In this document: positions 9,001 through 12,000 of the stretch, piece after piece
How the letters are laid out: each line of letters begins with the position of its first letter
Numbering within the stretch: position 1 is the stretch's first letter
DNA from: a virus
Taxonomy: Duplodnaviria; Heunggongvirae; Uroviricota; Caudoviricetes
DNA length: 21,616 nt
Strand: one strand, 5' to 3'
Virus record (IMG/VR): IMGVR_UViG_2541047867_000011
Coordinates: 1-21,616 of that record
Position numbers: made by a program

Positions 9001-12000
9001 TTCAAAGAGGCATACATCAACGCCTTTAACCTGATGGAGAAGAGTTTATCAGGTGCCGATGCGTCTGATATGTCAGCTGTCGCACGAAACGCCAGAGGCG
9101 TATACCTGCATTTGCGTGAAATCCATCAAATCTGGACAAGCCAGCTTTATCCAATGCTTAAGGCCGTTGAATCTCCGCTGGCTAGCAAACTGTACGACCG
9201 TGTTGGTGATGCTGTTTTTGGCGCTGCACTTGTTGATTCCAGGCTGAATGGTTCTGACAAGGAGGTTCGCCCATGATTAGTTACGAAATCATCATCTCCA
9301 CTACGGAATACAGAAACGATGTATCAGTTCGCACGGATGTATCTGTCTGGCACCGTCGCTATAAATCCAGAAAAACAGCGGAACTGAAAGCGGCAGAGAT
9401 GTGTGAAACCATCTCAATGAAAGGTAGCCCGGTTAAATACGTAACTACGGTGGAGGTGCGTCCATGATCCGCCACATCGTTAATTCCCTGTATCACCGAT
9501 ACAACCGTTGCCCCCGTGTGGGGCAGTGGTTCGCCACCAGCAACGGTCACGTTCTGCGGGTTTGCCTAGTCAACGCTGAAAGCCAGAAAGTCGTGTGCGA
9601 ACTACAGGGGCGTAGCTACACCATCAGTTACCCTCTGGCGGTATTTCTGTCTGGAAAAATGTTTAAGCGTCTGGGAGGTGTGGCGTGAACTGTTTTCAGT
9701 TTGTGTGCGGATGTGCTTTCGATAACCCGATTCAGCGCCTAATTATGTTGCGTGTTTTGATGTCGGGTTCTTCAGACGGTGAAGGCGAGAGAGTTATTGA
9801 TCATCAGGTGCTTGCTGATTTCTGCTGTTGTTCTAAGCAAGCGATATTCAGGGAAACCCTGGCACTGGAAAGAGCTGGTTATCTTCATATCCGAAAAATT
9901 GCAACGCTTACTATTGATGCAAAAGCCAGACTACAACCTGCGCGTGGCTACACAATTCTCATGCCGCGGAAGGAGGTTGTATGAGCCGTTACGCCCCCAC
10001 ACCGGAAGTTATGGCTATTGGTCAAATTAATATTTCCGGCAATGTTACACCTGCGAACTGGTGGAAATATATTCGACTACCCAGTGGGCGTCCGGATGCG
10101 ACGGCTATCGCTCTGCTTTCAGAGATCGTTTACTGGTACCGCCCGACAGAGGTCAGGGATGAGCACACCGGAGCGTTGCTGGGATATCGCAAGCGTTTTC
10201 AGGGCGACAAACTGCAAAGAAGCTACCAGGCGTTTGCTGAGCAGTTTGGTTTCGGGAAAAGGGAAACCGCAGATGCGCTGAAGCGTCTGCGCGATGCAGG
10301 GTTTATTACTCTGGATTTACGCACGGTGGAAATGCTCGATGGGGTGAAATGCAGCAATATTTTGTTTGTCGGGATCAACCCACAGGCAATTGCGGCCATC
10401 ACCACACCTTCTTCTGTTTCGCCAGAAAGTAACAGCAATAATGCAATCAGCGATACAGCTATTACGTTAAAACGGAACACCCCCCGACGTCATAACGGAA
10501 CAGGGGATACGCCGAATGTTGATACAAATACAGAGATTACTACAGAGATTACAACGGAGACTAAAAACACTATTGATGCATCCGCTGACGCGTCTGCGCG
10601 TTCTGCCCGACAGGAATATTCACCGGAATTTGAACAGGCCTGGCAGGAATATCCCAAACGTGCTGGTGGCAATTCCAAGTCAGCGGCCTTCAAAGCCTGG
10701 AAAGCCCGTATCAGGGAGGGAATAAAACCGGAGACCATGCTTGATGGCGTGAAGCGGTATGCCGCCTGGGTACGTGCTACAGGAAATACCGGCACACAGT
10801 TCGTGAAGCAGGCTGCGACGTTCTTTGGACCCGATCGTCACTTCGAAGATTACTGGCAACAGCCAGCCGCTCACGGAGGTGGGCGACAGCGACAGGTCGA
10901 TGTCCTGGCTGGCCTGGGAGCCATGTCTGACAAATTCGGTAAATCCAGTAACAAATTGACATTCTGAGGTGACAGCGATGATGACGATTGACCAACGTGA
11001 GAAACAAACAAGACTACAGGCGCGAATGGATGAGTTACGGGCAGAAATGGATGAGTTACGGGCAGAGATTGCATTTGCTCAGAAGGGCGAAAAGCCATGG
11101 CCTTATCGTTCCTGCCTGATGCGTGAAGGTCGCGGATATTGCGAAAAACACGGTAAATATCGTACGCATATACTGGTGTGGATCGATCGTAATGGCGAGG
11201 ACAGAGAAAAAATTTCATGCTGCCCTGACTGCTTGATCGCTGAGGCCAGTGATTTGACCATGGAACTGTCGTCCCTCAAGGCGGAAGAACTGACTGATAA
11301 CGCCGGAATTGCTCTGCGTTTTCGGGACTGCGAGTTTGATAATTATCTGGAGGTTAATCCTGACGCAGCCAGAAATCTTGCGGCCTGTCGCCGCTATGCG
11401 GAGAACTGGCCAGATATGCTGGAGAACGGTACCAGTCTTGTTATGACCGGCAGTTGCGGTACCGGGAAAAATCATCTGGCGGTATCAATGGCAAAACACA
11501 TCATCCGTAACTATCTGGCCAGTGTGGAGATCACCGACGTGATGCGCCTTACCCGGGCTGTGAAAAACTGCTGGCGGAATGACAGTGAAAAAACAGCGGA
11601 TGACGTCATTGAGCATTATGCGTCACTGGATTTGCTGATTGTCGACGAAGTCGGCGTTCAGTTTGGCAGTGCGGCTGAAATGGCCATTTTGCAGGAAATT
11701 ATCAATGCCCGGTATGAGGGTATTTTGCCAACTATCTTGATCAGCAATCTTTCACCGGAAGAATTGTGGGCGTTCATCAGTCCCCGGATTGCCGACAGGA
11801 TCACCGATGGCGGGCGCAACTGGTTGTCGTTTAACTGGCCCAGCTACCGTTCTCGTATCGGAGGTGTTGCCGCATGACCAGCCAGAACACCCCGGCATGG
11901 CGTAACGATGACCTGGAAGGCGCTGTCATCGGTGCGTTTTTTCTGCGTGGGGCCGATCCGGAAGTGATGGATATTCTGGCCACACTTCCGGCGGATGTAT

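Follow-up and report, generated by a model that had tools for sequence, protein, structure and literature searches.

What are three short tandem repeats doing in the middle of a phage replication initiator gene? The question is raised by a stretch of 21,616 nucleotides (IMG/VR virus record IMGVR_UViG_2541047867_000011, positions 1 to 21,616; Caudoviricetes), called the window throughout. An earlier note made from this sequence had described three consecutive 12-bp units in the linker of an O-like initiator, followed by an A-rich stretch, as iteron-like repeats and as a candidate replication origin comparable to that of phage lambda. We propose, with a probability of about 0.6 and on the basis of sequence comparisons, that the 12-mers are the conserved half of a two-module origin located in the linker-coding part of the initiator gene. 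The features of this gene are as follows.

9981..10967, plus strand: replication initiator gene (328 aa), which contains the 12-mer element
9981..10409, plus strand: N-terminal winged-helix domain (aa 1-143), presumed origin-binding; predicted structure with a pLDDT (predicted local distance difference test) of 91, 'SEIVYWYRP' helix plus an insertion
10461..10483, plus strand: repeat E1, candidate specificity iteron, ATTACGTTAAAACGGAACACCCC, with the core ACGTTAAAACGGAACA at 10464-10479
10484..10506, plus strand: repeat E2, CCGACGTCATAACGGAACAGGGG, core at 10487-10502
10507..10529, plus strand: repeat E3, degenerate, ATACGCCGAATGTTGATACAAAT, read from the sequence; in 23-bp register with E1 and E2 and abutting the 12-mer block
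10514..10573, no strand assigned: 60-bp segment with the lowest duplex stability in the initiator gene (nearest-neighbour scan), candidate strand-opening site
10530-10541, plus strand: unit 1, ACAGAGATTACT; with the preceding T at 10529 it reads T-ACAGAGATTAC-T
10542-10553, plus strand: unit 2, ACAGAGATTACA, that is ACAGAGATTAC-A
10554-10565, plus strand: unit 3, degenerate, ACGGAGACTAAA
10575..10967, plus strand: C-terminal domain, presumed loader/helicase contact, directly after the 12-mer block and starting at 'ASADAS'

The three consecutive units of the earlier note are confirmed; they occupy 10530-10565, the third unit is degenerate, and the A-rich stretch 3' of them is short (AAAAACACTATTGAT). 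Unit 1 fits the cross-phylum consensus (T)ACAGAGAYTAC, and a degenerate last unit ending in ...TAA is often found in relatives (ACAGAGATTAA, ACAGAGACTAA and ACAGAGAGTAA). Tandem Repeats Finder reports 10529-10560 with a period of 12, 2.7 copies, 90% matches and a score of 50. The units encode TEIT-TEIT-TETK, in the linker between the winged-helix N-domain and the C-domain. They are contiguous and 12 bp each, unlike classical duplex iterons, which are 17-22 bp long and phased at ~22 bp. Searching the window for ACAGAGAYTAC with at most one mismatch gives three matches against 0.34 expected, and one of 100 shuffles reaches three. These within-window statistics are modest; the strong evidence against chance is comparative.

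Eighty loci encoding the N-domain were gathered from one-genome-per-species contigs. They span Enterobacterales, Marinomonas, Acinetobacter, many Bacillota, Chloroflexota, Cyanobacteria, Rickettsiales, Slackia and Armatimonadota. All collected loci with the N-domain were then dereplicated to 62 representatives with <90% N-domain identity and 29-64% GC. In the 62 loci the word ACAGAGAYTAC, at the same tolerance of one mismatch, has 101 occurrences within 330 nt downstream of the N-domain versus 7 in the other 634 kb (both strands), a 460-fold enrichment just after the winged-helix domain, and after the N-domain it is always on the coding strand. The unit spacing is 12 bp in 35 cases, 15 bp in 5 and 11 bp in 2; a spacing of 10 bp is found in Vibrio phage X29.

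Codon usage bears on what is being conserved. With the repeats defined by peptide only, as T[EK][ITN]T, and with the rest of the same open reading frames (ORFs) as background, threonine is encoded by ACA in 76 of 80 positions (33% background, p 7e-29), glutamate by GAG in 55 of 60 (40% background, p 3e-16), isoleucine by ATT in 38 of 40 (39% background) and lysine by AAG in 19 of 20. Mixed codons are used for 'EIT', a motif conserved at the protein level where the N-domain ends. E-to-K changes (ACAAAG) are tolerated in the word, and N-domain homologues at 64-72% identity, including those of Symbiopectobacterium and Arsenophonus, have TYTEITTETTTEI-like peptides at the same place. A second reading frame is used within uninterrupted ORFs by 12 of the 101 copies; in locus L040, for instance, VYRDYLEITTKTT leads into a DnaD-like domain, and in L083 IYKDYSETT leads into a C-domain of the window type, with further cases in L030, L065, L072 and L082. 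Vibrio phage X29, a cultured phage, has three units, 11 and 10 bp apart, each in a frame of its own. Because of the enrichment, the fixed codons and the use of two or three reading frames, selection is placed on the DNA word, with the peptide as a tolerant linker; the comparisons thus argue that the 12-mer word is conserved as DNA and not as protein.

Two Lachnospiraceae loci (L011 and L012, peptide YRDYNRDY) were also considered as evidence for another frame and were set aside, as their T-E-x-T frame is open into the downstream DUF6017 ORF. In Lachnospiraceae-type elements, which carry ParA and a serine recombinase (L011 1212-2157, L012-L014 3001-4003), the N-domain ORF stops just after the 12-mer block, and the DUF6017 ORF comes next in the frame that reads the block as T-E-x-T. 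This arrangement is either a split gene or a frameshift or recoding.

A second set of repeats precedes the block. E1 and E2 form a direct repeat with 23-bp spacing (88%), and their core pattern is exact at those two places alone in the window. E3 resembles the degenerate last unit of relatives, such as CTACGTTGAAAAGTGAGACGTAT in Yersinia, and is weak when taken alone. Repeats of the E class (TACGTTnnAACGnAA) are also present in relatives from Enterobacterales, Bacilli and Thermoanaerobacterium. Internal repeats at 17-27-nt spacing were found just 5' of the block in 37 of 52 loci, versus 4 of 52 and 5 of 51 in control coding zones. They are lineage-specific and often dyad-symmetric, being of the TTACGTTGAAACGTAA type in Enterobacterales and Bacilli, GTCACAAAATTTTGTGAC in Lachnospiraceae, and TGGCGGAAnnCGCCAA, GGTCAAAAACGACC or CATTGTCTGAAAACAGACAATG in viral contigs. 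With increasing N-domain divergence, the number of shared 8-mers in the upstream zone drops from 7.9 to about 1, whereas identity in the 12-mer zone holds at 70-79%. The layout with two modules is a general one: repeats followed by 12-mers recur in other N-domain families, and in all families inspected the block begins within about 6-10 nt of the last upstream repeat. It should be mentioned that a word-like ACAGCTATTAC (two mismatches) lies just 5' of E1, at 10455-10465, with ACAGGTATTAC as its positional equivalent in Yersinia relatives; this may be an isolated unit beside the variable repeats or have arisen by chance.

Among E. coli alleles, the region of E1-E3 and the 12-mers has 1 substitution in 105 positions, versus 7-9% divergence in the N-domain DNA. 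The number of units is variable at this level. The extraintestinal pathogenic E. coli (ExPEC) strain XM has one extra perfect unit, and 6 of 40 evenly sampled records of E. coli relatives have extra length matching one more unit. The earlier note had counted copy number that varies in close homologues without effect on replication against an origin; the variability is real, but number alone does not refute an origin. The XM locus (L006, 1501-3658) has the same N-domain and repeat region with a different C-terminal tail, and its downstream genes encode PerC, an N6-adenine methyltransferase and a LexA-like repressor, not DnaC-like and DnaB-like proteins.

The word is not confined to the window's N-domain family. 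An exact dimer of TACAGAGAYTAC is present in at least 120 IMG/VR stretches. Among the 120 matches listed, 118 are in the T-E-x-T frame of initiator-like ORFs, and 37 belong to the window's N-domain family at E<=1e-30; this strict threshold was used for the count, as the A6 N-domain hidden Markov model at E<=1e-3 is not class-specific and gives weak matches in the PhiR49_2 class described below. An EH2201-like family, a distant homologue of the window N-domain (hhalign E 5e-5), accounts for 23 of the listed matches by sequence signature and 37 by phmmer. A third family, 'IGLNEAIVLQQxHYW', accounts for 28, with many phages of Staphylococcus aureus, Listeria, Bacillus and Bacteroides, as well as E. 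coli mEp460, and other listed carriers of the exact dimer fall outside these three families. The word is therefore unchanged across at least three N-domain families; Stx2_EH2201, for example, has a very different N-domain and nearly the same repeat block. All 106 listed ORFs with enough upstream sequence have [YF]W at a helix end about 115 aa upstream. The C-domains of word carriers are of the window type, the lambda-O C-type, Phg_2220_C, DnaD-like DnaB_2, DnaA_N or DUF6017, and cultured carriers include Burkholderia phage BcepIL02, Vibrio X29, Acinetobacter IME-AB2, Bacillus PM1 and Salmonella 118970_sal3. One locus, L106 (a contig of a giant-virus metagenome-assembled genome, GVMAG), matches the dimer pattern within a long low-complexity protein of NRDY repeats, in another frame, and is probably unrelated simple sequence.

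A comparison with PhiR49_2 separates the N-domain from the other candidate readers of the word. PhiR49_2 shares with the window the host, the C-domain (98% DNA identity) and the DnaC/DnaB partners, and has a non-YW N-domain. Its tandem at this position also has 12-bp units but another sequence, GAACCAGTCAA(A/T), at about 2480-2540 of L002, with the peptide EPVK/EPVN. This second word is preceded by variable repeats of its own, such as GGTAGTGCAGGAGATTCACCAGG, and is found in at least 120 viral stretches of IMG/VR (L224-L303 among the loci). Among its listed carriers, 111 of 112 have an N-domain of the PhiR49_2 class and 1 of 112 has [YF]W; among the listed carriers of the first word, 1 of 120 matches the PhiR49_2 class. 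The same C-domain types and the same host are found with both TACAGAGAYTAC and GAACCAGTCAA. In these comparisons the word follows the N-domain class, irrespective of C-domain, loader type and host. The N-domain is therefore probably the reader of the 12-mer, and a universal host factor is argued against. A further locus, L069 of a Rickettsiaceae metagenome-assembled genome (3-1169), combines this N-domain and two ACAAAGACTAC units with a DnaA_N-like C-terminal domain (Pfam PF11638, 9e-9), which suggests recruitment via the surface that DnaA domain I uses.

The initiator itself is a mosaic, in which the N-domain and linker are variable and the C-domain is near-invariant, being near-identical in initiators that carry three other N-domain types. 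The modelled fold of the N-domain is nearest to the N-domains of RepA_N and DnaD proteins. The best PHROG match of the whole protein is PHROG 270, 'replication initiation protein' (E 3e-75), and its 'O-like' PHROG matches are weak (phrog_391, 7e-7); the C-domain matches 'DnaD-like helicase loader' and 'primosomal protein'. The protein has no Pfam match at E<=0.01, with neither Phage_rep_O, the lambda O family model, nor RepA_N (PF06970) being matched, and no NCBIfam match. DNA homology to the 'replication protein O' genes of Stx phages begins at window position 10530, the first base of the repeats. In two pairs, the window with Stx2_EH2201 and Yersinia L018 with viral L192, the sequences are unrelated upstream and 97-99% identical from the block onward; being shared, the word serves as a crossover point. 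At the start of the C-domain (ASADAS[AP]ARSA), 6 bp encoding Ala-Pro (GCACCA or GCGCCA) are missing from the window at 10597/10598 and present in every relative compared.

How might such an element work? In the mechanism that we propose, module 1 (10461-10529), with two good and one degenerate lineage-specific, partly dyad repeats spaced by ~23 bp, would supply the specificity sites, and the recognition helix of the N-domain would bind it as duplex, as with lambda iterons or the Rep boxes of pSK41. Module 2 (10529-10565), the tandem TACAGAGAYTAC word, abuts the last repeat and would stand in place of the lambda A/T-rich tract. An initiator oligomer would nucleate on module 1 and extend onto module 2, opening it or holding one of its strands, after which the DnaC-like loader would place the DnaB-like helicase. 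Parallels for the second step are winged-helix Reps on the 13-mers of a DNA unwinding element (DUE), DnaA on DnaA-trios and lambda O on A/T-rich single-stranded DNA. The segment 10514-10573 has z = 2.6; within the 21.6-kb window, only the cI/cro intergenic region is less stable. No single-strand structure is predicted for the 12-mer block (z about 0, block unpaired). A unit spacing of 10-15 bp agrees better with 12-mers read as single strands, or with loose phasing, than with a phase-locked duplex reading; the absence of self-structure and the constant strand orientation point the same way, indirectly. No DnaA box was found in window 9900-11000, and the only IHF-like matches are two weak ones away from the block; primase trinucleotides are too short to inform.

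Lambda offers the nearest positional parallel. In gene O, four dyad-symmetric iterons of 18-19 bp and, after them, an A/T-rich tract make up the origin, which separates the parts coding for the N- and C-domains. The tract is dispensable for O binding and O-some formation, is essential for unwinding and is bound by O as single-stranded DNA, and the minimal unwinding substrate consists of two iterons plus the tract (PMC7466680). The window repeats likewise lie in the linker-coding middle of the initiator gene (10461-10565, after aa 143), with direct repeats of imperfect dyad symmetry on the N-domain side and a low-stability segment with a purine-rich top strand on the C-domain side. Some 12-mer carriers even have a lambda-O-type C-domain, with the block replacing the A/T-rich tract after dyad-symmetric repeats. 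The window differs from lambda in that the initiator is not a member of Pfam Phage_rep_O, that module 2 is a defined tandem 12-mer conserved across phyla and not a generic A/T-rich tract, and that the partners are a DnaC-like loader and the phage's own DnaB-like helicase, not lambda P. The comparison with ori-lambda made in the earlier note thus holds for the position inside the initiator gene, with the 12-mer block sitting where lambda has its A/T-rich tract and not its iterons. Iterons of the lambda type are about 20 bp long, dyad-symmetric inside and particular to one initiator, and their better counterparts appear to be E1-E3; repeats of this kind diverge with the N-domain, while the 12-mer word is constant across at least three N-domain families and gives way to GAACCAGTCAA in a different class. 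What stands of the candidate origin is a DNA-level cis element in the initiator gene for which an origin is, from the comparisons, the best explanation.

Other systems share parts of this layout. The pSK41 RepA_N replicon has an origin of four Rep boxes within its rep gene, in the central part, which encodes a linker and is dispensable (PMC5703833). The present initiator differs in having no RepA_N Pfam domain, and the review of RepA_N origins describes no tandem 12-mer shared between families. Winged-helix plasmid Reps (RK2 oriV, F) bind duplex iterons and also, sequence-specifically, one strand of the tandem 13-mers of the DUE, in which the sequence of every repeat matters (PMC4081077). These 13-mers and the DnaA-trios resemble the 12-mers as short tandem repeats immediately beside duplex sites of the initiator (candidate sites in our case). 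They are intergenic and replicon-specific, whereas the block described here is intragenic, has 12-nt units, is 67% A+T and is near-identical across phyla. In SPP1, with oriL in gene 38, and in lactococcal P335-type phages, the initiator binds repeats within its own gene, and these Firmicutes replisome-organiser origins share that general principle with the window.

Several observations weigh against the two-module origin. The A/T-rich tract of lambda has no copy of the word at <=2 mismatches, so that the lambda parallel is positional only. The 12-mer block is just 67% A+T, on average ~9 points above the A+T content of its locus, and for this reason it is not a DUE defined by composition in AT-rich hosts. 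Upstream of the block, the window has just two good repeats plus a degenerate one, with imperfect dyads. Recombination may be part of the reason why the repeat region diverges so little in E. coli. The model needs a sequence-specific reader of the 12-mers, and the one motif that every carrier shares, [YF]W closing helix 1, may just be structural. Aaphi23 and phiP27 are members of the two N-domain classes that lack their 12-mer word, which is therefore not indispensable. Among the carriers found, none has reported initiator binding, reported origin activity or an origin mapped in a cultured phage.

The 12-mers could instead be the primary iterons, bound as duplex by the winged-helix domain, with the 23-bp repeats as accessory operator-like or enhancer sites. 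Their sequence-specific conservation, tandem arrangement and copy-number variation would suit such a role, as would the tracking of N-domain class and not C-domain or host, which again points to the N-domain as reader. We nevertheless consider this unlikely, given a word that does not change across at least three N-domain families with differing recognition helices, separate dyad repeats that do co-vary with the N-domain, and spacerless 12-bp units at 10-15-bp spacing, unlike phase-locked 17-22-bp duplex iterons. A variant in which the 12-mers are low-affinity duplex sites, nearer to what the earlier note had said, is quite possible. It is improbable that the word is an intragenic regulatory site, at which the initiator or another factor would bind to control the initiator gene itself or the downstream genes of loader and helicase, or which would act in the mRNA. 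Initiators commonly autoregulate, and the word is always on the coding strand and hence transcribed. However, a search of the region against Rfam gave nothing relevant (one chance snoRNA match below threshold), the block is without predicted single-strand structure, no sigma-70-like hexamers were seen on inspection, and dyad repeats plus a low-stability tandem block between initiator domains are the layout of known origins. A translational role is unlikely because the reading frame varies.

That the word is kept as a module-exchange sequence, for swapping of N- and C-domains by homologous recombination, would account for the homology breakpoints exactly at the block in two independent pairs, and yet we give it very little credence. 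Selection for evolvability is too weak to keep an 11-mer near-invariant from phylum to phylum and at 29-64% GC, homologous recombination is marginal at a length of 24-48 bp, and a conserved functional word would be expected to collect crossovers as a by-product. The least credible alternative is an ordinary low-complexity coding repeat, in which slippage made T-E-I-T units in a disordered linker with no function at the DNA level. The linker location and the whole-unit copy-number variation are what slippage would produce, but it is already contradicted by the enrichment, codon and frame data: codons fixed far beyond background (p down to 7e-29) where the same peptide elsewhere has mixed codons, synonymous sites that stay fixed while the peptide changes with the frame, a DNA word kept through charge-reversing E-to-K changes, and the 460-fold positional enrichment across phyla.

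Beyond the two-module origin of the window, we tentatively entertain, while leaning against it, a wider joint claim. The TACAGAGAYTAC tandem may be a near-universal cis element of winged-helix initiators with a 'YW' helix, a superfamily of very great size in phages, prophages, plasmids and integrative elements of many bacterial phyla, serving as a class-specific unwinding or strand-holding module read by the initiator, with GAACCAGTCAA doing the same job in a second class. The element would then be a phage counterpart of the DnaA-trio, placed in the coding strand of the linker.

An origin inside an initiator gene is known; what is unusual here is a cross-phylum, class-specific tandem 12-mer conserved as DNA in coding sequence. 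No description of the word was found in open-access full text searched with the word, its reverse complement and its peptides, which returned unrelated primers and names only; provisionally the word is undescribed, older and subscription literature being outside the scope of that search. If the proposal is true, one word of 11-12 nt would identify where replication starts in thousands of phages, prophages and mobile elements, among them Stx-converting prophages, those of E. coli sequence type 131 (ST131), temperate phages of S. aureus, and phages of Acinetobacter, Bacillus, Vibrio and Burkholderia. Such origins could be annotated from sequence alone, and phage origins, like oriC and iteron plasmids, would have a separate sequence-specific module beside the specificity repeats. 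The case is also one of overlapping codes, in which the DNA signal is constant while its reading frame in the protein follows from the spacing, and it would explain the exact point at which the N- and C-domains of initiators recombine. The word could find use in replicon typing, in vector design and as an origin decoy directed at phages.

The window belongs to a lambdoid prophage of E. coli, with 100% identity over the query length to ST131 and other genomes, and its initiator allele group is present in 222 of 5426 complete genomes. The genes around the 12-mer block encode the CI-like repressor, a Cro-like protein, a Rha/Ash regulator, small ORFs, the initiator, the loader, the helicase and a DUF968 protein. 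The principal neighbours are the following.

6995-7726, minus strand: CI-like repressor, on the upstream side of the initiator region
10978..11877, plus strand: DnaC-like helicase loader, presumed trans-acting partner (Pfam IstB_IS21 4e-14, Bac_DnaA; PHROG 50)
11874..13274, plus strand: DnaB-like replicative helicase, presumed trans-acting partner (Pfam DnaB_C 8e-74)

Near the 5' end of the loader gene, window 11025-11066 is a perfect 21-bp tandem duplication, AATGGATGAGTTACGGGCAGA twice, which encodes MDELRAE twice; the loader genes of relatives are 900 nt or 879 nt long, which fits presence or absence of this duplication. On the upstream side, an ORF of 99 aa at 9685-9984 has a stop codon that overlaps the initiator start. 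Its match to PHROG 4617, 'replication initiation protein' (2e-29), is confined to the N-terminal 93 residues of that family, and the ORF is kept as a separate small gene in relatives. Farther upstream, the ORF of 429 aa at 7987-9276 combines anti-repressor-like, Ash and Rha domains in one protein, and in relatives these domains are divided among separate Rha, Ash or BRO-N genes.

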